From Solirubrobacteraceae bacterium (GTDB lineage Bacteria > Actinomycetota > Thermoleophilia > Solirubrobacterales > Solirubrobacteraceae), in contig DATJRV010000083.1 of assembly GCA_035504435.1 (NCBI GenBank), positions 22,242 to 86,241 of the forward strand: DNA of 64,000 nucleotides, in the 5' to 3' direction. Position numbers and translations under genes: made by a program. Positions 1 to 47,567 of the stretch are shown here, piece after piece; within the stretch, counting starts at the first letter, position 1; each line of letters starts with the position of its first letter. The notes under the pieces are model-generated. The model saw only the letters and a list, made by a program, of their open reading frames with translations, was not told the origin of the DNA and did not search any database.

Positions 1-584
1 AAGCGCTCCAGCGCCTCCCCCACCTCCCGCCGGCGCAGCTCCGTTTCCGCGCCCACCCGCTCGCGGTCGAGCACTTCGCCGCGCGCGAGCACGCTGCCCT
101 TGCGCACGATCTCCGCGCGCGTGGGCCGCGGGCTCACGCCCAGGACGCGCGCCTGGGGCTCGTCTGCGGCGAGCGCGCGGATGACCAACGGGTCGCCGTC
201 GGCGAGCAGCTCGAACAGCGCGTCGTCCGGGAGGTCGATGAGCACGATGCCCGCCTCCACCAGCAGCTGGGGGCCGAGGTTGGGGTAGCTGCCGCTGGAG
301 GACGGGCTGCAGTTGAGGACCGCGACGGCGCCCGCGGCGATCAGCTCCTCGGCGGACACGCGGTCGATGTCGCGGTGGTCGATCAGCGCGACGTCGCCGC
401 GCACGAGATGCCTGACGAGCAGCTTCGTGCGCCGTCCCAGGCGCACCGAGCCGGCGACGCTCCACGCCCGCGCGCCGACGAGCGCGACCGGTTGCGCGCG
501 TGTCGTGGGCGAGGCGGAGGCTTCCGCACGCGCGGACTCGGGCGCCGATGCCGGCGGCTCCTGCGCGATCGGGCGCGTTGCCAC
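1..584 (-). CDS. steA: SteA-like cell-division/cytokinetic ring protein (partial, runs off window start)
   Basis: Manual translation gives GSVRLGRRTKLLVRHLVRGDVALIDHRDIDRVSAEELIAAGAVAVLNCSPSSSGSYPNLGP, the SteA N-terminal signature. Lies directly downstream of recN. Start (GTG 584) uncertain. Confidence 0.8.
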   Translation of the reverse strand, partial: MATRPIAQEPPASAPESARAEASASPTTRAQPVALVGARAWSVAGSVRLGRRTKLLVRHLVRGDVALIDHRDIDRVSAEELIAAGAVAVLNCSPSSSGSYPNLGPQLLVEAGIVLIDLPDDALFELLADGDPLVIRALAADEPQARVLGVSPRPTRAEIVRKGSVLARGEVLDRERVGAETELRRREVGEALER

Positions 585-641: not shown

Positions 642-2417
642 TCACGCCGCGCGGCGCAGGTCGCGCGCGTGACGGCGCGCGGTGGTGTCGTCGCTGTCGG
701 CGCCGAGCATGCGCACGAGCTCGCTGACGACGTCGCCCTCGCCGAGCTGCACGACGCTCGCGCGCGTGGGCAGGGCGGTGGTGTCCTTGACGATCGAGAA
801 GTGACGGGCGCCCAGCGAGGCGATCTGCGGCAGGTGCGTGATGCACAGCACCTGCCGGCGCTCGCCCAGCTCGCGCAGGCGCGCACCGACCACGCGCGCG
901 GTGTGACCGCCGATGCCGGCGTCCACCTCGTCGAAGACGAGCGTGGCGTCGTTCGGCGTGGCGTCGTTCGGCGGCTCTTCGCCGGCACCGTCTCCAGCAT
1001 CGTCGCCCGCGGCGCGGTCGCGAGACCGCGAGGGCGCTGCGCTGGCGACGCTCATGATCGCGAGCATCACGCGCGAGAGCTCGCCGCCGGAGGCGATCTC
1101 GCGCAGCGGCCCGGCGCCCACGCCGGGGTTGGGGGCGAGCATGAACTCGACCGCGTCGCCGCCGGTGGGCCCCGCGTCGCGCTCGTGCAGCAGCACCTCG
1201 AAGCTGGCCTCGCCCATCGCCAGCGCCGCCAGCTGCTCGCGCACGTCGCGCGCAAAGCGCTTGGCCGCCGCGTGGCGCGCGCGCCGCAGCGCCAGCACGC
1301 CCTGCTGGAGCTCCGCGCGGGCCGCCTGCAGACGTTCGCCGGTCTCGGCGAGCGCGCCCTCGACGCCGGCGAGCTGGTCGTGGCGCGCGCGGGCCTGTTG
1401 CGCGTAGTCGAGCACCGCGCGCACGCTGCCGCCGTGCTTGCGCGTGAGCCGCTCGACGGCCGCGAGCCGCGCTTCGAGCGCATCGAGCGACGCCTCGCCG
1501 TGGAGCTGGCCGAGGACCTCCTCGCCGGCGTGCTCGCCGGCGCGCTCGCAGTAGTCGTGCAGCTCACGCGCGAGATCCTGGGACTCGATCAGCAGCGAGC
1601 GCATGCGCTCGGCGAGGGCGTCGAGTGCAGGATCTATGGACGCGACCGCATCCATTCGCGCGCCCGCAGCCGCGAGCAGCTGGGCGGCTCCGACGGCCTC
1701 GCCGCTCTCCGGGGCGAGCGCGTCGGCGCCGGCGCCGGCGGCCGAGCACAGCGCGTCGAGGCTGCGCAGGCGCCCGCGCGCCGCCAGCAGCCGCTCGTGA
1801 TCTGACTCGTCGAGCGCGAGCGCGTCGATCTCGCCGAGCTCGAAGGCGAGCAGGTCGAGCTCGCGCTCGCGTTGCGCGGCGAGCTCGCGCAGCTCCTGCA
1901 GGCTCGCCTCGAGCGCGCGCGTGCGCGCGAACGCCTGCGCGCACGCGCTGAGCCGTGCGGCGTGCGCGCCAGCGCACTGCCCGTCGAGGATCTGCAGCTG
2001 GGCGCTGGCGAGCGTGAGCTTGCGGTGCTCGTGCTGGCCATAGAAGGCGAGCAGCGCCCCACCGATGTCACGCAGCTCGTGCGCGCTGGCCGCGCGGCCG
2101 CCGAGGTAGGCGCGTGTGCGCCCGTCGCTGGAGACGCGCCGCGCGAGCGTCAGCTCCTGGGCGTCGGCGCTGAGACGCTCGCCGAGCTGCCTGCGCAGCC
2201 CGTCAGGCAGATCGAAGGTCCCCTCGACGTACGCCTCGCTGGCGCCGGGGCGCACGATGCCGCTGCGCGCCTTGCCGCCGAGCAGCAGGTCGAGCGCGTG
2301 CGCGAGCACCGTCTTGCCGGCGCCGGTCTCGCCGGTGATCACGTTCAGGCCAGGGGCGAGCCGCAGCTGTGCCTCTTCGATCAGCAGCAGGTTCTCGACG
2401 CGAAGCTCTTGCAGCAT
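642..2417 (-). CDS. recN: DNA repair protein RecN
   Basis: MLQELRVENLLLI start, Walker A GETGAGKT, signature ASGGELSR, Walker B LVFDEVDAGIGG, CITHLPQIA. Confidence 0.97.
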   Translation of the reverse strand: MLQELRVENLLLIEEAQLRLAPGLNVITGETGAGKTVLAHALDLLLGGKARSGIVRPGASEAYVEGTFDLPDGLRRQLGERLSADAQELTLARRVSSDGRTRAYLGGRAASAHELRDIGGALLAFYGQHEHRKLTLASAQLQILDGQCAGAHAARLSACAQAFARTRALEASLQELRELAAQRERELDLLAFELGEIDALALDESDHERLLAARGRLRSLDALCSAAGAGADALAPESGEAVGAAQLLAAAGARMDAVASIDPALDALAERMRSLLIESQDLARELHDYCERAGEHAGEEVLGQLHGEASLDALEARLAAVERLTRKHGGSVRAVLDYAQQARARHDQLAGVEGALAETGERLQAARAELQQGVLALRRARHAAAKRFARDVREQLAALAMGEASFEVLLHERDAGPTGGDAVEFMLAPNPGVGAGPLREIASGGELSRVMLAIMSVASAAPSRSRDRAAGDDAGDGAGEEPPNDATPNDATLVFDEVDAGIGGHTARVVGARLRELGERRQVLCITHLPQIASLGARHFSIVKDTTALPTRASVVQLGEGDVVSELVRMLGADSDDTTARRHARDLRRAA

Positions 2418-2564
2418 CGTCAAGTGTGTAGCAGCACGTGGGGATGGATCGCGCCCGTGCACGACTTGCCTGGCGGCGTGGGAAGGAGCATAATCTTGGG
2501 GCCGGTCCAGGAAGGACAGCCGCAGGGAACCACCGGCTCGGCCGTACACTCGTCCGCTACAGGC

Positions 2565-3191
2565 ATGGCTGCCAGCGACCCCCATCAGCGCTCCGATCCC
2601 GCCGCCACGGGCGACGGCGACACGTATGCGCTGGGCAGCCTGGGCGAGCGCCTGGGCGAAGAGATCGCCCGCGCTGAACGCCACGGCACGGGGCTCAGCT
2701 GCCTGCTGGTGGCGTTCGACGACCTCGATCGGATGGCGGGCGGGCACCCCGACGAGCTGCGCGAGCAGACGCTCGAGTACGTGGTCGGGGCGCTGCGCAG
2801 CGAGCTGCGCTGCTTCGATCGTGTGGGTCGCACCGCGGAGGGGGATGTGCTGCTGCTGCTGCCCGGCGCGGACAGCCCGCGCGCGGAGGTGGTGGCGCGC
2901 CGCGCGCTGGAGCGCCTGCGCACGATCAAGGTGGAATCGGCGGGCACGCGCACGCCGTTGCAGGTCTCAGTTGGGCTGGCCGCGTGGCGCGACGGCCTGG
3001 GCGCCCAGGCGCTCGTGTTGCAGGCGCACGCGGCGCTGAGGAGCATCGGCGCGGAGCACGCCCACGACCCGGCGCTCGCGCCGGCACCGCCGTCGACTTC
3101 GGCCGAGCCGCCGGCGCAGGGAGCGCCGCCGGCGAGCGCGCGCGAGCGCACGGACCCGGCGACGACGCTGGGCTGCATGGGCGGGCAATAA
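2565..3191 (+). CDS. Stand-alone degenerate GGDEF-domain protein
   Basis: EEIARAERHGTGLSCLLVAFDDL, VGRTAEGDVLLLLP (GGDEF replaced by AEGDV), LQVSVGLA. Start ATG 2565 inferred. Confidence 0.8.
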   Translation: MAASDPHQRSDPAATGDGDTYALGSLGERLGEEIARAERHGTGLSCLLVAFDDLDRMAGGHPDELREQTLEYVVGALRSELRCFDRVGRTAEGDVLLLLPGADSPRAEVVARRALERLRTIKVESAGTRTPLQVSVGLAAWRDGLGAQALVLQAHAALRSIGAEHAHDPALAPAPPSTSAEPPAQGAPPASARERTDPATTLGCMGGQ

Positions 3192-3200
3192 GCTCCAGCT

Positions 3201-4334
3201 GTGCTGTCGGGATCGGAGTTGTGGCTGCTGCGGCTGATGGCCGACCGCGGCCTTGCGCTGCTGGACGCGAGCGCGCTGCTGGTGGTGATCGAGGAGCGCG
3301 GCGAGCTGCGCGTGGCTGCGGCCAGCGGGGCCTCGCCGCGCCTGCGCATCGCGCCCGTGCAGGGCAGCGCGCTGGGCTCGCTGTACCAGCAGCGCAAGCC
3401 GATCTCGCTGGATCGCCCGCGCGGCCAGGAGGCGGCGTGGCTGCACGAACTCGGCTTGGAGGCGCGCGCGGTGCTGGTGGAGCCGCTCGACATGGAGGGC
3501 CACGGCGGCGGGCTGGTGATCGCGCTGCGCGAGCACGGCGGTTTTCGCGACCCCGACCGCCAGGCGCTCGCCGCGTTCGCCTCGAGCGTCGCCCAGCGCC
3601 TGGCGGCCGAGCGCTCGGTGGAGATCGAACGCCTGCGCTACGGCATGGAGGCGCGCGAGCGCGAGCGCGCGCGCTGGGCGCGGGAGATCCACGACGAGAG
3701 CATCCAGGGCATCGGCGCGCTGCGCCTGCAGCTGGCGAATGCGCGTGACCTGGACGACCGCCGGGCGCTGAACGACGCGGTGGACACGGTGCTGGAGGGG
3801 CTCGGCACGGAGATCGACGGGCTGCGCCACCTGATCACCGAGCTGCGCCCGGCGGCGCTCGACGACCTGGGCCTGGCGGCCGCGCTGGAGGCGCTCGCCA
3901 GACGCGCCCAGGCGATCGACGGGCTGGAGGTCAAGACCGAGATCCAGCTCGGCGACCCGGCCGATCCGGGCGCGGAGGACGGGCGCCGGCGCCTTGACCC
4001 GGAGCTCGAGAGCACGATCTACCGGGTGGTGCAGGAGGCGCTCACGAACGTCAGCCGCCACGCGCAGGCGAACAGCGCGGTGATCACCGTGCGCGAGCGC
4101 GGTGGTGTGGTCGAGGCGTCGGTGCGCGACGACGGCCGCGGGATGCCGGGAATGGAGCGCTTGGGGCCGCGCGGCGACGGGCTGGAGGGCGGCTTTGGGA
4201 TGGGTGGCATGCGCGAGCGCGCCGAGCTGGTGGGCGGCGAGCTGGAATGGGCGCCGGCGCCGGAGCGCGGCACGGTCGTGCGCCTGACGGTGCCGCTGGC
4301 GGGACGCCCGGCGGCGGCCGCCCACCCGGCGTAG
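3201..4334 (+). CDS. GAF + HisKA_3 sensor histidine kinase (NarX/DevS-like)
   Basis: H-box ERARWAREIHDESIQ, N-box VVQEALTNVSRHA, G-boxes VRDDGRG and GFGMGGMRER, N-terminal GAF-like region. Confidence 0.9.
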   Translation: MLSGSELWLLRLMADRGLALLDASALLVVIEERGELRVAAASGASPRLRIAPVQGSALGSLYQQRKPISLDRPRGQEAAWLHELGLEARAVLVEPLDMEGHGGGLVIALREHGGFRDPDRQALAAFASSVAQRLAAERSVEIERLRYGMEARERERARWAREIHDESIQGIGALRLQLANARDLDDRRALNDAVDTVLEGLGTEIDGLRHLITELRPAALDDLGLAAALEALARRAQAIDGLEVKTEIQLGDPADPGAEDGRRRLDPELESTIYRVVQEALTNVSRHAQANSAVITVRERGGVVEASVRDDGRGMPGMERLGPRGDGLEGGFGMGGMRERAELVGGELEWAPAPERGTVVRLTVPLAGRPAAAAHPA

Positions 4335-4373
4335 GTCAGTGGCTGCACGCCCGCCTAGAGATCGTCGTTCTCG

Positions 4374-5426
4374 TTAGACGTCGCCCTCTTCGTCGGCGGG
4401 GAGATCGTCCTCCTCGCGGGACGCGTCGTCATCGGAGGTGGATGCGTCGTCGCGGCGCAGCCAGTCGGCGAGCTGCTTGCCGACGGAGTTGACCGACTCG
4501 CCGGCGTCGCGGAAGGCGTCGCGGATGCGCTCGGCGTAGAAGCTCACGGCCTCGCCGCCCTCCGCGCGGGCGTCGACGGGATCGCCGCGGCGGGGGTACT
4601 CGTGCGCGCCGACGATCCGGTCGAAGTCGCCCGAGCGCACCCACGCCATCAGCTCGTGCGTGCGCTTGACGGGCATCGGATGGGTGACGCCGAGGTCGAG
4701 CATCAGTCGCGTGAGGCGCTCGAGGCCGCCGCCCTTCTCTTTGTAGTCGAGCCCCTGGCGCATGAACGCGTCGAGGTCGAGCTCCTCGACCATCGCGCCG
4801 CCGGCGATCGACATCAGCGTGCGGCACACCGCCAGCGGGTCGCGCGTGACGAGCGCCGCGGCGCGGTCGGCGCTCAGCTCGGTCGCGCGACCCCACTCCA
4901 TCAGCGCGGTGCGCACCGGCGTCAGCGGCAGCGGCAGCCGCGAGCTGCGGGTGAGCAGCACGAGGATCAACAGGGCGGTGCGGTAGAGCTGGTGGTCGGA
5001 GAGGATGTGCGCGGCCTCGTGCGCGAACACCACCCGCCGCTGGGGGGCGTCGAGCAGCGAGAGCAGCTGGGACTGCACGACCACGATTGGGTGGCGCGCG
5101 CCGATGGCCATCGCGTTGGCGACCGGGAACTGGCTGAGATACAGGTCGGGCACGTCGGCCATGTCGAGCGTGGCGTAGGCGATCGCGTGCTCGCGCCAGA
5201 CGTCGCCGAGCTGCTCTTCGGAGAGGCGCACGGAGGAGCCGAGGAAGCTCTGGCGCAGTGCGCGCTCGTAGCCGAGCTCGATCAGCTTGCGTACGACGGT
5301 GTCGAGGTAGGGAATCGAGGACAGCGCGGCGGTGGCGGCGCGGTCGGCAGGGTGCTGGAAGGCCCGCGGCGAGATCCCGGTCAGCCGGTAACCCTCGGCG
5401 GGAACGGTCGAGCCGGACGCGTCCAT
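4374..5426 (-). CDS. M48 family Zn metallopeptidase
   Basis: FQHPADRAA N-terminus, HEAAH zincin motif, ELSADRAA, THP motif. Confidence 0.9.
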   Translation of the reverse strand: MDASGSTVPAEGYRLTGISPRAFQHPADRAATAALSSIPYLDTVVRKLIELGYERALRQSFLGSSVRLSEEQLGDVWREHAIAYATLDMADVPDLYLSQFPVANAMAIGARHPIVVVQSQLLSLLDAPQRRVVFAHEAAHILSDHQLYRTALLILVLLTRSSRLPLPLTPVRTALMEWGRATELSADRAAALVTRDPLAVCRTLMSIAGGAMVEELDLDAFMRQGLDYKEKGGGLERLTRLMLDLGVTHPMPVKRTHELMAWVRSGDFDRIVGAHEYPRRGDPVDARAEGGEAVSFYAERIRDAFRDAGESVNSVGKQLADWLRRDDASTSDDDASREEDDLPADEEGDV

Positions 5427-5581
5427 CGGTCCAGCGTACAGCTCCACGCGGAACCCTGTTGCGCGCAAGAGAATCGTCGGGGGCACCAAAAATCGGTGGC
5501 CGTGGAAGTGATGTACGCGTACGCCGACGCTGCGATCCGGGGCGACTGTGCCTGACCCTCGATGGCATACGCTCCCGCGCT

Positions 5582-42127: not shown

Positions 42128-44883
42128 GCGCCGAGCACGGACTCGATCTCGCGGCGCGCCAGCTCGATCGCCTCCGGCAGGCGCTCCGGTTCGCGCCCGC
42201 CCGCCTGGGCGATCGTGTCGCGCCCGCCACCGCCGCCGCCGACGACCGCGGCGGCGGCCTTGACGATCGCGCCCGCCTTCACGCCGCGTCCCACGAGCTC
42301 CGGTGCGACGCTGGCAACCAGGTGCACGCGCCCGTCGGCCGCCGCGCCGAGCACGATCGCCGCGTCCGGGAGGCGCCCCTTCAGCCGGTCGAGCACGTCC
42401 AACAGGGCCTTCGCGTCGGCGACGTCGACGCTGGCCGCGAGCACGTTCGCGCCATCCGCGCGCGTGGCGCCCGCGGCGAGCGCGTCGAGGTCCACCGAGG
42501 CGGCGCCGTCCTGCGGCGTGCCCCCCTGCTTGAGCTCCTTCTCCAGCCGCCTGCGCTCCTGCATGAGCGTCGCTACCGCCGTGGGCGCGTCCTCGGGGCG
42601 GGTGCGCAGCTGGCCGGCGAGCTCGCGCAGCAGCCGGTCGTGCTCGCGCAAGAGCTCCACCGCCACCGGGCCGGTGACCGCCTCGATGCGACGCACGTTG
42701 GCGGCGCTGGAGGTCTCGTGCAGGATGCGAAACGCGCCGATCTCGGCGGTCGAGCGCACGTGCGTGCCGCCGCACAGCTCGCGCGAGTATTGATTCTCCC
42801 CGCCGCCTCCCCCGTCGCCGACCTCGACCATGCGCACGACATCCCCGTACTTTTCGCCGAACAGCGCCATCGCGCCGAGCCGCTTGGCCTCCTCCAGCGT
42901 GGTGGTGAGCGCGCGGACGGGGTCGTTGCGGGCGATCCAGCCGTTGACGCGATCCTCGACGTCGCGCAGCTCCTCGGCGCTGAGGGCGTGCCCGTGGCTG
43001 AAGTCGAAGCGCAGCTTGTCGGGGCCGACGTAGGAGCCGGCCTGGCGCACGTGGCTGCCGAGGCGCTCGCGCAGCGCCGCCTGCAGCAGGTGCGTGGCGG
43101 TGTGGTTGCACTCGGTCTGATGGCGGGTGAGGTGGTCGACGCGCGCGAGCACCTGCTCGCCGACCTCCAGCGCTCCGGCCTCGACGATCACCTCGGGGAT
43201 ACGGTCCTGCCCGATCGCGAGCACGTTCTCGACGCGCGCCACACAGTCGCCGTGCGCGCATTCGATCGTGCCGACGTCGGAGACCTGCCCACCGCCGGCC
43301 GCGTAGAAGGGGGACTCGGCGAGCTTCACCAGCATGCGCGCCGGCGCGCCGCCGTTGCCCGCCCCGCCGTTCTCGCCCACGGCGCTGTCCAGCGCGCGGA
43401 CGGCGACGACGCTCGTCGGCTGCACCTCTGTCTCGTAGCCGGTGAACACCGTGGGCGCGCCGTCGTCGAGCGGGCCGAGCGTGCCGGCGCCCGCTCCGGC
43501 GCCGGCAGCCGGCGGTCCGCTGACGGCCGCCTCGGCGGCCGTGCTCCCGCGCAGAGCGGCCCCGCGGCCCCGCGCGCGCTGCTCCTCCATCAGCTCGTCG
43601 AAGTCGCCCTCGATGTCGAACCCCTGTTCGGCGAGCAGCTCGCTGGTCATCTCGTAGGGAAACCCGTGCGTGTCGTGCAGCGTGAACACGTCCTCGGCGG
43701 CCACCGACGTGCTGCCGCCGGCGCGCGCGGCTTCGATGTGCTCCTGCAGGATCTGCAGGCCCTGGGCGAGCGTGCGCCCGAAGCTGTCCTCCTCGGATGA
43801 CAGCCACATGTCGGTGACCTCGGCCTGCTCGCCGAGTTCGGGGTAGACGCCGCCCATGACCTCGCGCACGCGCTGCGCGTAGCGCGTGAGGAACCCCGGC
43901 GCGAGCTCGAGCGCGAGGCCCTGCTGGATGGCGCGGCGCATGATCCTGCGCAGCACGTAGCCGCGGTCCTCGTTGGAGGGGACGACGCCGTCGGCGGTGA
44001 GGAAGGTCATCGCGCGCGCGTGGTCGGCGAGGATGCGCAGCGCACGGTCGCCCTCGAAGTCGGCGCCGTAGCGGCGCCCGGAGAGCTCCTGGCCGAGCTC
44101 GATGAGCGGCCGGAACTGGTCGGTCTCGAACACGGACTCCTTCTCCTGGAGGATGGCGGCGGCGCGGTTGAGCCCGAGGCCGGTGTCGATGTTGTTGGCG
44201 GGCAGCGGCTCCAGGGCGCTGCCGGGCTCATCGGGCGCGGGCCGCTGGTCGTACTGCATGAACACGAGGTTCCAGTACTCCAGGAAGCGCTCGTTCTCGC
44301 CCCCCGGCAGGTCGTCGGGCGAGCCGTGCTGGACGCCGCGGTCGATGTACAGCTCAGAGCACGGGCCGCACGGGCCGGTGGGGCCGGCCTGCCAGAAGTT
44401 CTCGGAGCGCGGGCAGCGCACGATCCGCTCGGCGGGCAGCCCGAGCTCGCTCCACAGCGCGATCGCCTCCTCGTCGGGGCCGAGCTGCAGGCCGTCGTCG
44501 CCTGCGAACACGGTCACCCAGATGGCGTCGGCGGGGAAGCCGAACACTTCGCGGGAGAGGTCCCACGCGTAGCGGATGGCCTCGCGCTTGAAGTAGTCAC
44601 CGAACGAGAAGTTGCCGAGCATCTCGAAGAACGTGAGGTGGCGCGCGGTGTTGCCGACGTTGGCGATGTCGACGGTGCGGAACACCTTCTGGCAGTCGGT
44701 GAGCCGCGTGGCGGGCGGGGTCTCCTGCCCGAGGAAATAAGGCTTCAGCGGGTGCATCCCGGCGACCGTGAGCAGCGCCGAGGGGTCGTGCGCGGAGGGC
44801 ACGAGCGAGGCTGACGGTATGCGCTTGTGGCCGCGTTCCTCGAAGAAGCTGAGGTAGCGCTCGCGGATCTCGTCGGTGGTCAT
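42124..44883 (-). CDS. alaS: Alanine-tRNA ligase
   Basis: ARHLTFFEMLGNFSFGDYFK, GPCGPCSE, DTGLGL, HTATH, ELCGGTH, GGGG C-terminus. Confidence 0.99.
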   Translation of the reverse strand: MTTDEIRERYLSFFEERGHKRIPSASLVPSAHDPSALLTVAGMHPLKPYFLGQETPPATRLTDCQKVFRTVDIANVGNTARHLTFFEMLGNFSFGDYFKREAIRYAWDLSREVFGFPADAIWVTVFAGDDGLQLGPDEEAIALWSELGLPAERIVRCPRSENFWQAGPTGPCGPCSELYIDRGVQHGSPDDLPGGENERFLEYWNLVFMQYDQRPAPDEPGSALEPLPANNIDTGLGLNRAAAILQEKESVFETDQFRPLIELGQELSGRRYGADFEGDRALRILADHARAMTFLTADGVVPSNEDRGYVLRRIMRRAIQQGLALELAPGFLTRYAQRVREVMGGVYPELGEQAEVTDMWLSSEEDSFGRTLAQGLQILQEHIEAARAGGSTSVAAEDVFTLHDTHGFPYEMTSELLAEQGFDIEGDFDELMEEQRARGRGAALRGSTAAEAAVSGPPAAGAGAGAGTLGPLDDGAPTVFTGYETEVQPTSVVAVRALDSAVGENGGAGNGGAPARMLVKLAESPFYAAGGGQVSDVGTIECAHGDCVARVENVLAIGQDRIPEVIVEAGALEVGEQVLARVDHLTRHQTECNHTATHLLQAALRERLGSHVRQAGSYVGPDKLRFDFSHGHALSAEELRDVEDRVNGWIARNDPVRALTTTLEEAKRLGAMALFGEKYGDVVRMVEVGDGGGGGENQYSRELCGGTHVRSTAEIGAFRILHETSSAANVRRIEAVTGPVAVELLREHDRLLRELAGQLRTRPEDAPTAVATLMQERRRLEKELKQGGTPQDGAASVDLDALAAGATRADGANVLAASVDVADAKALLDVLDRLKGRLPDAAIVLGAAADGRVHLVASVAPELVGRGVKAGAIVKAAAAVVGGGGGGRDTIAQAGGREPERLPEAIELARREIESVLGA

Positions 44884-45007
44884 TGGAGACTGATCTTACG
44901 GCGCTGCTGACGGGGCCGAGGGTCGAGCCGGACAAGGACGCAGCGAGCGAAATGTGCTCGGCACATGAGCGAACGAGGACACCGTCCGGCGAAGGCCATC
45001 GGCTCCG

Positions 45008-46546
45008 TCAGGCGATGGTGCCGTGACCGACGACGAGATCGCCGGCGTACAGGCAGGCGAGCTGGCCGGGTGCGGTGCGCTCGGCGGGCGCCTGCAGCTC
45101 GATCGCCAGGCTGGCGTGCGCGCCGGCGCCGGCCTCGCCGCGCAGCGTGCAGGCGAAGCGCCGGCCGTGGGCGCGCACGCGCACGCTGTCCACGCAGCGC
45201 CCGTCGCGGTGGAGCGTGGCCTCGCGCACGCTGAGCTCGCGGGCGAGCAGCGACTGGCGTGGCCCGACGGTGACGGTGTTGGCGTGCGTGTCGGTGGCGA
45301 GCACGTACAGCGGCGCCGGCGCGGAGAGGCCGAGGCCGTGGCGCTGGCCGACGGTGTACGCGTGCGCGCCGGCGTGCTCGCCGAGCACGCGCCCACGGGC
45401 GTCGAGGATCGCGCCGGGGCGCGCGCCGAGCGCTCCGTGGCGCTGCAGGAAGTCGCTGTGGCGGGTGCCGGCGAGGAAGCACAGGTCCTGGGAGTCGCGC
45501 TTGCGCGCCACCGCGAGGCCCGCCTGTTCGGCGAGCGCGCGCACCTGCGGCTTGTGCATGGCGCCGAGCGGGAAGCGCAGGCGCGCGAGCGACTCGGGGG
45601 CGAGCGCGGCGAGCACGTAGCTCTGGTCCTTGCGCTCGTCGGCGGCGGCCTGCAGCAGCGGCGTGTGCCCGGCGCGCTCGGGGCGCGCCTGCGCGGCCTG
45701 CTGTGCCGGGGAGGTGGCGTCTGAGTCGAGGCTGCGCTCGGCGACGCGCGCGTAGTGGCCGGTGGCGAGCGTCTCCGAGCCGAGGCGCCGGGCGAGCTCG
45801 AGCATGGCGTCGAGGCGCACGTGGCCGTTGCAGCGCACGCACGGGTTGGGCGTGAGCCCGGCGGCGTGGTCGGCGAGCCAGTGCTCGACGACGCCGGCGC
45901 GAAACTCGGCGCGCAGGTCGATCGACAGGTGCGCCATGCCGAGCTTGTGGGCGAGCGCGCGCGCGCCGCGCACCGCGTGGGCGGAGCAGCAGCTGGCTTC
46001 GCCGTCGTTCTCGGGGTCCGACCACAGTTCGAGCGTGACGCCCACCGCCTGGTGGCCGGCGCGCGCGACGAGCAGCGCGGCGACGGCGCTGTCGACGCCG
46101 CCGCTCATCGCGACGAGCGTGCGCTGCGGGTTGGCCGCGAGCGTGGCGCGCTCGCGCGCGGCTGCGCCGAGCGCCCGGTGCAGCGCGTCGGCGGCGAGCT
46201 CCGCGGCGTGGCGCTTGGCGGGGGCGAGGCCGCCGAGCTCCGCGGCGATGTCGCCGGCCCCGAGCTTGGCGGCGTCGAGCAGTGGCGTGCCGCGCACGAG
46301 CGCCACGCACGCGCTGCCGGCGGCGATGCTCGCACCGCAGCCGCTGGCGTCGAAACCCACCTGGTGGATGCGCCCGTCCGGGTCTGCGTCGTCGAGTGCG
46401 AGCGACACGCGGATCAAGTCGCCGCACGCGGCCCCGCCGGCGGCGCCGGTGAAGGCGCCCGCGGGTCGCTGGCCGCGTCCCAGCGGGTGTTCGAGGTGGC
46501 TTTGCAGCCGCTCTCCCTGCGGGGAGGATGCGTGGGTGGCGCTCAC
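45008..46546 (-). CDS. mnmA: tRNA 2-thiouridylase MnmA fused to an N-terminal IscU/NifU_N-like domain
   Basis: N-terminal ACGDLI..FDASGCGASIAAGS..KRHAAELA; then AMSGGVDS, SCC, PNPCVRCN, ATGHYAR, DQSY, SQDLCF, TVGQR, PGQ. Confidence 0.93.
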   Translation of the reverse strand: MSATHASSPQGERLQSHLEHPLGRGQRPAGAFTGAAGGAACGDLIRVSLALDDADPDGRIHQVGFDASGCGASIAAGSACVALVRGTPLLDAAKLGAGDIAAELGGLAPAKRHAAELAADALHRALGAAARERATLAANPQRTLVAMSGGVDSAVAALLVARAGHQAVGVTLELWSDPENDGEASCCSAHAVRGARALAHKLGMAHLSIDLRAEFRAGVVEHWLADHAAGLTPNPCVRCNGHVRLDAMLELARRLGSETLATGHYARVAERSLDSDATSPAQQAAQARPERAGHTPLLQAAADERKDQSYVLAALAPESLARLRFPLGAMHKPQVRALAEQAGLAVARKRDSQDLCFLAGTRHSDFLQRHGALGARPGAILDARGRVLGEHAGAHAYTVGQRHGLGLSAPAPLYVLATDTHANTVTVGPRQSLLARELSVREATLHRDGRCVDSVRVRAHGRRFACTLRGEAGAGAHASLAIELQAPAERTAPGQLACLYAGDLVVGHGTIA

Positions 46547-46583
46547 CTGAGCGAGTGTACGACCCGCTGGCGAGAGTTTTGCG

Positions 46584-47567
46584 CTATGCGGCGCGGGCTT
46601 CGTCGATCGCTTGTTCGATCGAGAATGCGTCCTGCAGCCCGGTGAGCACGATGGTCTTGCCTTGCTTGTTGATGACGAGCAGCGTGGGTGTGGAGTAGAT
46701 CTGCAGCCCGGCGGTGATCGTGCCGTAGGAGGTGACCTGGCTGGCGGTGGCCTTGAAGATGGCGAAGTTCTTCGTCAGTTCCTCACCGCTCTTTTCCAGC
46801 ACGCGCCGGACACCGGGGACCTTGGCGTAGGGCGCTACGAGGTGGTGGATGGCCTGTAGGCGCTGGAGTTCGACGGCGTCGACCGTGTCGTCGGCGCCCT
46901 TGGGGTTCCAGAACAGGATGACGGCGATCTTGCCTCCCTTCAGCGCCTGTTCGACGAGCACCTGGTTTGCGGGTGTGCGGGCGCTGTTGAGATGGGATTT
47001 GACCGGCTGCGCCTTGACGCTCGTGCTGGCGGTCCTTGGCGGGGTGGATGTACGGGCGTGAGCGCTGGCGCTCGTACTCGGGTGCGCGGTGGTGGTGGTG
47101 ATGGTGGTGGCGGAGCCGTGCGCGGCGGCGGTGGTGGTGCTGGGCGCGGCGGTGGAGCTCTGGTGGGTCGGGCTCACCGAGGTGTGCGCGCCGCTGGGGG
47201 CTTGGCTGGGGGCTTCGCTGGTTCCGGCAGCGGCCTTCGCTTGGACTTCGCGTGCTTCGCGCTGCGGGGTCGCCGCCGCTTCGCGCGCCTTGGCGACATC
47301 GCGCGTGAGCCCCTGCAATCCGGGGACTGAGCTGTGGTGGGCTCCGGCGGCGGGGTGCGTCGCGCTGGTGCTCGGCTTGGCGCTGGCGGAGCGGCTGTGG
47401 GCGGCGGACGTGGAGCCGGTCGAGACGGTGCTGGTGACGACGGGCGTGGAGGTGGAGCTTGTGGTGCTGGGGCTGTTGGAATGCGGTTGGAGCGCGAACA
47501 GCCACACGCCTGCGAGCAGCACGACGACGACCAGGGCGAGCTGAAAAGGACGTGGGATCTGCGCCAT
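46584..47567 (-). CDS. Membrane-anchored protein with Ser/Thr-rich stalk and C-terminal thioredoxin-like domain lacking CxxC
   Basis: N-terminal TM helix, long S/T/A linker, IAVILFWNPKGADD..STPTLLVINKQGK. Confidence 0.75.
   Translation of the reverse strand: MAQIPRPFQLALVVVVLLAGVWLFALQPHSNSPSTTSSTSTPVVTSTVSTGSTSAAHSRSASAKPSTSATHPAAGAHHSSVPGLQGLTRDVAKAREAAATPQREAREVQAKAAAGTSEAPSQAPSGAHTSVSPTHQSSTAAPSTTTAAAHGSATTITTTTAHPSTSASAHARTSTPPRTASTSVKAQPVKSHLNSARTPANQVLVEQALKGGKIAVILFWNPKGADDTVDAVELQRLQAIHHLVAPYAKVPGVRRVLEKSGEELTKNFAIFKATASQVTSYGTITAGLQIYSTPTLLVINKQGKTIVLTGLQDAFSIEQAIDEARAA

Follow-up and report, generated by a model that had tools for sequence, protein, structure and literature searches.

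A tRNA thiolase gene with an IscU-like N-terminal domain

The window analysed here is a stretch of 64,000 nucleotides from the genome of a soil actinobacterium of the family Solirubrobacteraceae. Its minus strand carries, in this order, genes for a metallo-beta-lactamase-fold hydrolase, hisS, a membrane protein of unknown function, the fusion gene that is the subject of this report, alaS and ruvX. The product of the fusion gene is the organism's only MnmA, the tRNA 2-thiouridine(34) synthase, and bears at its N-terminus a domain derived from IscU. The features of the gene are collected in Table 1.

The original prediction, made from the sequence alone, was of an IscU-like domain joined to an MnmA of the CxxC type, and profile searches bear out this architecture: in one open reading frame (ORF), Pfam NifU_N is followed by tRNA_Me_trans and the rest of a complete MnmA. 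The NifU_N match scores 76.4 bits against a gathering cut-off of 22, which places the domain in the NifU_N superfamily, and the three Pfam domains of the MnmA body (PF03054, PF20259 and PF20258) all lie above their cut-offs. Searches of the whole genome with PF01592 and PF03054 returned the same coordinates for the N-terminal and catalytic domains, and the second of these identified the fusion gene as the sole MnmA gene. The C-terminal 370 residues also exceed the thresholds of two NCBIfam equivalogs for MnmA, NF001138 (333.7 bits, cut-off 284) and TIGR00420 (277.9 bits, cut-off 236.95). All of the motifs quoted in the prediction are present, those of the N-terminal domain being ACGD (C41, D43), GCG (C70) and KRHAAELA (K111, H113, A114), and those of the MnmA part SCC (C186, C187), PCVRC (C236, C239) and DLCF (C356).

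Table 1. Features of the fusion gene in the window, and genes that directly follow the fusion in related genomes
Feature	Locus	Residues	Position	Strand	Basis
Whole fusion gene	Window	512 aa + stop	45008..46546	-	Single ORF, GTG start at 46546; ORF list and translation
IscU/NifU_N-like domain	Window	13-127	46166..46510	-	Pfam NifU_N (PF01592), E 2.8e-21
Linker	Window	128-141	46124..46165	-	End of last IscU helix to MnmA strand 1 (AlphaFold2 model)
MnmA catalytic (HUP / PP-loop) domain	Window	142-359	45470..46123	-	Pfam tRNA_Me_trans, 206.5 bits
MnmA PRC-barrel domain (tRNA_Me_trans_M)	Window	365-428	45263..45454	-	Pfam PF20259, 64.3 bits
MnmA C-terminal beta-barrel (tRNA_Me_trans_C)	Window	454-511	45014..45187	-	Pfam PF20258, 29.9 bits
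C41-G42-D43, counterpart of E. coli IscU C37/D39 and human ISCU2 C69/D71	Window	41-43	46418..46426	-	Alignment to IscU chains
C70, counterpart of IscU C63 and ISCU2 C95	Window	70	46337..46339	-	Alignment to IscU chains
H113-A114 (CAC GCC); His of K-x-H-C kept, third scaffold Cys (IscU C106 / ISCU2 C138) replaced by Ala	Window	113-114	46205..46210	-	
PP-loop SGGVDS	Window	148-153	46088..46105	-	Sequence
CC pair C186, C187	Window	186-187	45986..45991	-	Sequence; invariant in 111-sequence alignment
CxxC (C236-V-R-C239), predicted [4Fe-4S] ligands	Window	236-239	45830..45841	-	Sequence; invariant in 111-sequence alignment
C356 (DLCF), predicted third [4Fe-4S] ligand	Window	356	45479..45481	-	Sequence; at least 90% conserved in 111-sequence alignment
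Small membrane protein gene directly after fusion	L023		5471-5860		
Small membrane protein gene directly after fusion	L018		2374-2868		
Small membrane protein gene directly after fusion	L021		5623-5991		

Residues of the IscU-like domain

The N-terminal domain has the fold of IscU, ISCU2 and the archaeal and clostridial 'MisU'-type proteins (3LVL, 4EB5, 7C8M, 8RMC) and shares the Cys-x-Asp, Gly-Cys and Lys-x-His motifs of IscU and ISCU2, but it has Ala at the position of their third cysteine, the persulfide acceptor and cluster ligand. This loss had been predicted; it is upheld, and the pattern is not a matter of chance. In phmmer alignments to the solved IscU/NifU chains 7c8m, 5t0v and 4eb5, Ala114 falls on the Cys of the K-x-H-C motif (PQKMHCS, PVKLHCS), and among the 240 homologous fusion proteins read, from three large lineages, none has His-Cys at the third site. 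That site is usually His-Ala, with a few examples of His-Gly, His-Thr or His-His. The canonical cysteine triad of IscU (C37, C63 and C106, E. coli numbering) is therefore incomplete, C106 being Ala114, and Asp39 and His105 of the canonical assembly site are kept as D43 and H113. An alignment of 111 sequences from two classes shows C41, D43, C70, K111 and H113 to be invariant and A114 to be at least 90% conserved; the C.D and GC motifs occur in 238 of the 240 fusion proteins (the other two were not scored).

The corresponding residues of ISCU2 have known functions. Free ISCU2 holds Fe(II) tetrahedrally by means of Cys69, Asp71, Cys95 and His137, Cys138 is the sole persulfide acceptor (a C138S change abolishes persulfidation), and upon desulfurase binding a loop Cys of NFS1 takes the place of Cys69 at the metal (PMC11021402). 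The fusion domain retains exactly the four metal-site residues of ISCU, which in the free protein form a mononuclear site for Fe(II) or Zn(II), and lacks exactly the acceptor Cys. Since that acceptor is Ala114, a simple persulfide relay via the canonical acceptor is excluded, and the domain cannot carry out the canonical chemistry that leads from persulfide to cluster. Metal binding and engagement of a desulfurase loop are still plausible because Cys41, Asp43, Cys70 and His113 are kept. Judged by these residues, the domain is most likely not a cluster-building scaffold.

A SufU-like character, which the original prediction had raised as a possibility, did not hold. The domain scores 63.2 bits with the NifU_clost equivalog TIGR03419 (cut-off 187.9) and 54.2 bits with the IscU equivalog TIGR01999 (cut-off 192.4), but only 25.9 bits with SufU (TIGR01994, cut-off 92.5), and in these NCBIfam comparisons it is IscU/MisU-like, as it is in fold. 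It differs from IscU and NifU themselves in falling far below both equivalog cut-offs and in being attached to an enzyme. SufU belongs to the same superfamily, and the role considered below for the fusion domain, a sulfur relay and not a scaffold, is similar; SufS, moreover, is the only desulfurase of the genome. However, the zinc site of SufU is Cys-Asp-Cys-Cys, whereas the fusion domain has Ala at the last ligand and keeps the His instead, and the genome has a separate, bona fide SufU adjoining SufS. Membership of the SufU family was rejected on hidden Markov model (HMM) score, on the ligand set with its missing last Cys, and on fold.

A Tyr that aligns with Tyr3 of IscU (Tyr35 of ISCU2) is found in the fusions of Rubrobacteraceae and of other Thermoleophilia and is missing from those of Solirubrobacterales, a group that is also without class I desulfurases (IscS/NifS), though so short a stretch at the N-terminus cannot be aligned with certainty.

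The MnmA part and its cysteines

By its cysteine pattern the MnmA part is of the C type, and it is predicted to use a [4Fe-4S] cluster. The CC-CxxC-C arrangement is the defining motif of C-type, [4Fe-4S]-dependent MnmA (Shigi et al. 2020, PMC7025502), and all of its cysteines are kept in 230 of the 240 relatives. Across the 111 aligned sequences, S148, G149, G150, D152 and S153 of the PP-loop never vary, and conservation of V151 is at least 90%. The Thermus thermophilus counterparts of the predicted cluster ligands are Cys105 and Cys108 for the CxxC and Cys200 for the third ligand; in vitro, IscS or SufS can supply enzymes of this type with sulfur directly, and their conserved CC pair has no known function (PMC7025502). 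The fusion resembles the T. thermophilus enzyme in its three-domain body, PP-loop SGGVDS, CC pair, CxxC and distal Cys, and differs by about 135 extra N-terminal residues, which form the IscU-like domain. The MnmA chains of the PDB, that of T. thermophilus included, have 375-380 aa, and no PDB chain spanning both an IscU-like and an MnmA domain was found.

Predicted structure

An AlphaFold2 model of the fusion protein was built on the 111-sequence alignment (mean predicted local distance difference test, pLDDT, 90.9; predicted template modelling score, pTM, 0.88) and matched to solved structures by Foldseek. The N-terminal domain superimposes on solved IscU structures with root-mean-square deviations of 1.1-2.0 Å, the value for 4eb5_C being 1.1 Å, and TMt to the best IscU chains is 0.75-0.85 for most, with 0.83 for 3lvl_A and 8rmc_D. 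These matches include chains taken from IscS-IscU complexes (4eb5_C, 3lvl_A). SufU is a weaker match (TMt about 0.65). The MnmA body matches the crystal structures 2hma and 2det, with TMt of 0.87. At the junction the model has a helix (109-132) followed by a strand (142-146), in a block with pLDDT of 94-96; the alignment shows that the linker is longer and Gly-rich in the fusions of Rubrobacteraceae.

About 30 aa within the MnmA catalytic domain form a segment with many Ala, Gln, Ser and Pro residues (…ERSLDSDATSPAQQAAQARPERAGHTPLLQ…; residues ~268-298, ~45650-45745, minus strand), where pLDDT is 55-57. A 99%-identical protein (P0002) shares this segment; the other relatives read have a much shorter one or none.

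Integrity of the fusion

The fusion would be an artefact if the true start lay at the MnmA domain, or if two genes had been merged by an error of sequencing or assembly. The GTG start has no obvious Shine-Dalgarno sequence upstream, and a promoter/terminator scan of 44800-46800 found nothing, with no promoter-like site among its results; both points are in keeping with an artefact, which is nevertheless very improbable. After the GTG at 46546, the in-frame starts are at codons 44, 47, 63, 81 and 84, all within the IscU-like domain, and the only ATG near the junction, codon 147, is the Met of AMSGGVDS and sits within the first PP-loop strand. Because the later starts fall inside either the IscU-like domain or this strand, no start codon gives an intact stand-alone MnmA; only GTG 46546 yields an intact enzyme, and the predicted start therefore stands. 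The same fusion recurs, in frame, in hundreds of assemblies made independently of one another, closed genomes and those of cultured Rubrobacter among them. The G+C content at third codon positions is that of coding sequence across the whole ORF (0.91 in the N-terminal domain, 0.97 in the MnmA part), and the N-terminal domain is conserved in the way expected under purifying selection: compared with the window protein, identity is 76% for this domain and 77% for the MnmA part within Solirubrobacteraceae, and 39% and 44%, respectively, for Rubrobacteraceae. A mis-called start and an assembly artefact were both rejected, on the start positions and on recurrence across Solirubrobacterales genomes. 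Separate trees of the two domains recover the same five clades, which argues that the fusion is old and has been inherited as a unit.

The fusion gene of a Thermoleophilia metagenome-assembled genome (MAG), MFD01872.bin.4.195 (L050), is apparently frameshifted just past the HAAE motif, and two other copies (G458:C10 and G437:C8) each have a TGA in frame. Such copies may be pseudogenes or the result of errors in assembly.

Distribution of the fusion and of the third cysteine

A protein search with the N-terminal domain alone gave, among its 120 best hits, nearly always proteins with NifU_N followed by MnmA, 480-525 aa in length, and all organism names among these hits were those of Solirubrobacteraceae MAGs. 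Fusions were counted in whole genomes; matches among representative proteins are mostly metagenomic fragments, the lengths of which are unusable for counting. Exactly one match to the N-terminal domain was present in 76 of 81 sampled Solirubrobacterales genomes (66 of the 67 of high quality), nearly always in a frame of at least about 480 aa, making the fusion essentially universal in this order. In a sample of 401 genomes of the phylum, frames of fusion length were found also in other families of Thermoleophilia and, outside the class, in Rubrobacteraceae. The fusion is lineage-wide and not peculiar to the gene in the window. Among cultured species, R. xylanophilus and R. radiotolerans carry it, annotated as MnmA/TrmU.

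Forms that keep the third Cys were sought with a scan seeded by a two-sequence alignment of such forms. The residue is kept in a few deeper-branching fusions (f5/Soudan_30, LH_M23, C12 and CSMAG_679), mostly without the His, and the third site then reads RRSC, RHNC or RSSC. Because these few deeper lineages keep it, the fusion may predate the loss of the third Cys. Either one loss or several is possible, as the deep branching of the tree is unresolved.

A two-Cys IscU subfamily may also exist outside the MnmA fusion. In Candidatus Rokuibacteriota (JACQRS010000105.1; L047 638-1045, plus strand), a stand-alone IscU-like protein of 135 aa reads ERRHAAD, i.e., His-Ala without the third Cys. The start of its gene overlaps the end of a gene for an IscS-type desulfurase (SAGSACTSG loop), and a hexapeptide-repeat, CysE-like gene, a putative serine acetyltransferase, follows. 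Another actinomycetotal genome has a different IscU fusion, a 446-aa frame (L029, G064:C44, ~1403-2740, plus strand) in which a canonical three-Cys IscU domain (…KMHCSNL…) runs in frame into a GGGPGG dinucleotide-binding motif; the partner resembles an FAD/NAD(P) disulfide-oxidoreductase-like protein.

Gene neighbourhood and cysteine desulfurases

In Rubrobacteraceae, as with IscU, the fusion directly follows a class I desulfurase gene; this was so in all five genomes examined. In R. xylanophilus, a desulfurase gene at 2816-3985 precedes the fusion at 3989-5458, and its product scores 415 bits with the NifS model and 356 bits with the IscS model. In Solirubrobacterales, by contrast, the fusion domain is almost entirely without such a partner: a convincing class I desulfurase was found in only one of the 81 genomes. 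The window genome has none, and no desulfurase gene of any kind lies near the fusion in the window. NifU_N occurs twice in the genome, once in the fusion and once in a true SufU (95.3 bits, above the cut-off of 92.5), the gene for which lies directly after that of SufS (550 bits) on a separate contig. The remaining class V pyridoxal phosphate proteins are SerC and one weakly scoring protein of 366 aa (L004 1405-2505, G000:C53), the best desulfurase model for which is SufS, with 72 bits. That this protein might be a hidden desulfurase was considered and rejected, as it is weak on all desulfurase models and no Cys was seen in the C-terminal stretch that holds the catalytic Cys of SufS.

The arrangement can be compared with dedicated desulfurase-MnmA pairs such as YrvO-MnmA of B. 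subtilis. In mycobacteria, iscS and mnmA are neighbours. The fusion lies in a conserved neighbourhood, hisS/aspS ... (desulfurase) mnmA ... alaS ruvX, and in Rubrobacteraceae the desulfurase gene is likewise directly upstream of mnmA. The fusion differs from these pairs in having an IscU-like domain placed between desulfurase and MnmA, and the window genome differs further in that the neighbouring desulfurase gene is wholly missing.

Directly upstream of the fusion in the window is an ORF of 327 aa (46584-47567, minus strand) with a transmembrane segment, a long region rich in Ser, Thr and Ala, and a globular C-terminus; at E ≤ 0.001 it matches nothing in Pfam. The corresponding place is taken by lipoprotein-like ORFs in Rubrobacter (L023 1840-2772) and in a further Thermoleophilia genome (L018 4391-4921). 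Directly after the fusion, Rubrobacter and other Thermoleophilia have a gene for a small membrane protein of about 120-165 aa with an N-terminal hydrophobic helix (Table 1); in the window there is merely a gap of 124 nt between the fusion gene and alaS.

Possible roles of the IscU-like domain

A built-in module for the delivery of sulfur or of Fe-S clusters is a reasonable reading of the sequence and would fit the desulfurase gene directly upstream in Rubrobacteraceae. The form of it that we tentatively prefer, at somewhat under an even chance, is that the N-terminal domain acts as a built-in desulfurase dock and hand-off module that brings persulfide to the active site of MnmA. The metal site of the domain would dock the mobile persulfide loop of a cysteine desulfurase, which would be the upstream NifS/IscS-type enzyme in Rubrobacteraceae and, in Solirubrobacterales, SufS, which is the sole desulfurase there. 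From the loop, the sulfur would pass in cis to the MnmA active site, either via the conserved CC pair, which is the obvious candidate for an acceptor, or straight to the cluster's free iron. The analysis establishes that the fusion exists and is conserved, and also its residue pattern and gene neighbourhoods; metal binding, docking and the route of the hand-off are inferred. The desulfurase operon in Rubrobacteraceae and the IscS-type gene beside the two-Cys IscU-like gene of Rokubacteriota both speak for a dock.

Several observations pull the other way. A NifS-like query from Rubrobacter had no match at E ≤ 1e-30 in 78 of the 81 Solirubrobacterales genomes; the usual class of IscU partner is thus almost absent from the order, and the partner would have to be SufS. 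This is the chief weakness of the proposal, as the normal recipients of sulfur from SufS are SufU and SufE alone, whereas the domain resembles SufU in neither HMM score nor fold. The four metal-site residues are invariant despite the absence of class I desulfurases, which could mean that their role is independent of the type of desulfurase. Finally, T. thermophilus MnmA is active in vitro without any IscU-like domain (PMC7025502).

The invariance of the four residues, with or without a class I desulfurase, also fits an intrinsic metal site, and hence a relic with a structural or regulatory function. Such a domain would be an IscU fold that binds Zn or Fe, takes no part in the movement of sulfur or clusters and serves instead in folding, dimerisation, tRNA binding or the sensing of iron or sulfur status. 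The pTM and the confidently modelled linker suggest a fixed two-domain body, a further point in favour of a relic. The tight operon with a desulfurase in Rubrobacteraceae and the IscS neighbour of the stand-alone form in Rokubacteriota speak against it, and the N-terminal domain is as conserved as MnmA itself, which argues for a role tied to sulfur chemistry. A relic is distinctly unlikely.

A further alternative, which is somewhat unlikely, makes the domain a scaffold or repair module for Fe-S clusters that works in cis and is dedicated to MnmA. It would still assemble or hold a cluster, the absent fourth ligand coming from a second subunit, from the CC pair of MnmA or from the loop of the desulfurase, and would go on to load or repair the labile [4Fe-4S] cluster of the enzyme to which it is joined. 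That enzyme is of the Fe-S-dependent C type, four residues of the IscU assembly site (Asp, His and two Cys) never vary, and the third Cys of some deeper-branching fusions means that the ancestral fusion may have been a full scaffold. There is also a precedent in dedicated desulfurase-target pairs, e.g., NifS-NadA of B. subtilis, which are thought to build clusters in situ (review, PMC13066941). However, the lost Cys is in ISCU the essential persulfide acceptor and also a cluster ligand, the C138S protein not being persulfidated (PMC11021402), and its loss is fixed in all 240 proteins of the three large lineages. For supplying clusters, the genome already possesses a complete system in SufS-SufU. 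In addition, the N-terminal Tyr, which the title of one paper (PMC8617193) connects with cluster synthesis and the dimerisation of ISCU2, is apparently absent in Solirubrobacterales, within the uncertainty of its alignment.

A bolder version of the docking proposal, and an unlikely one, treats the IscU fold as a new type of sulfur channel. Here the Cys-Asp-Cys-His site would capture the persulfide-bearing loop of whatever cysteine desulfurase the cell has, including a type II SufS, which otherwise serves only SufU or SufE. The CC pair would replace the third Cys as acceptor, and the two domains would make up a relay that feeds sulfur to the free iron of the [4Fe-4S] cluster. If this were true, it would define the route, so far missing, by which Fe-S-dependent thiolation of U34 obtains its sulfur in vivo.

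Significance

Literature searches brought to light no published account of a fusion between IscU and MnmA. Hundreds of copies are present in public databases under the plain name MnmA, with truncated ones labelled 'Fe-S scaffold protein', and both labels miss the point. The parts are familiar; their combination, and the specific degeneration that accompanies it, are undescribed and suggest a mechanism. In effect, the domain is a natural separation-of-function variant in which the iron site of ISCU is kept and the persulfide acceptor is gone. It offers experimental handles on the delivery of sulfur to [4Fe-4S] thiolases, on what an IscU metal site can do without Cys106, and on the supply of tRNA thiolation where SufS is the only desulfurase, and it is present in cultivable Rubrobacter. 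The fusion bears on the in vivo sulfur supply and cluster upkeep of C-type MnmA, and it may show how MnmA enzymes of the iron-sulfur type obtain their sulfur.

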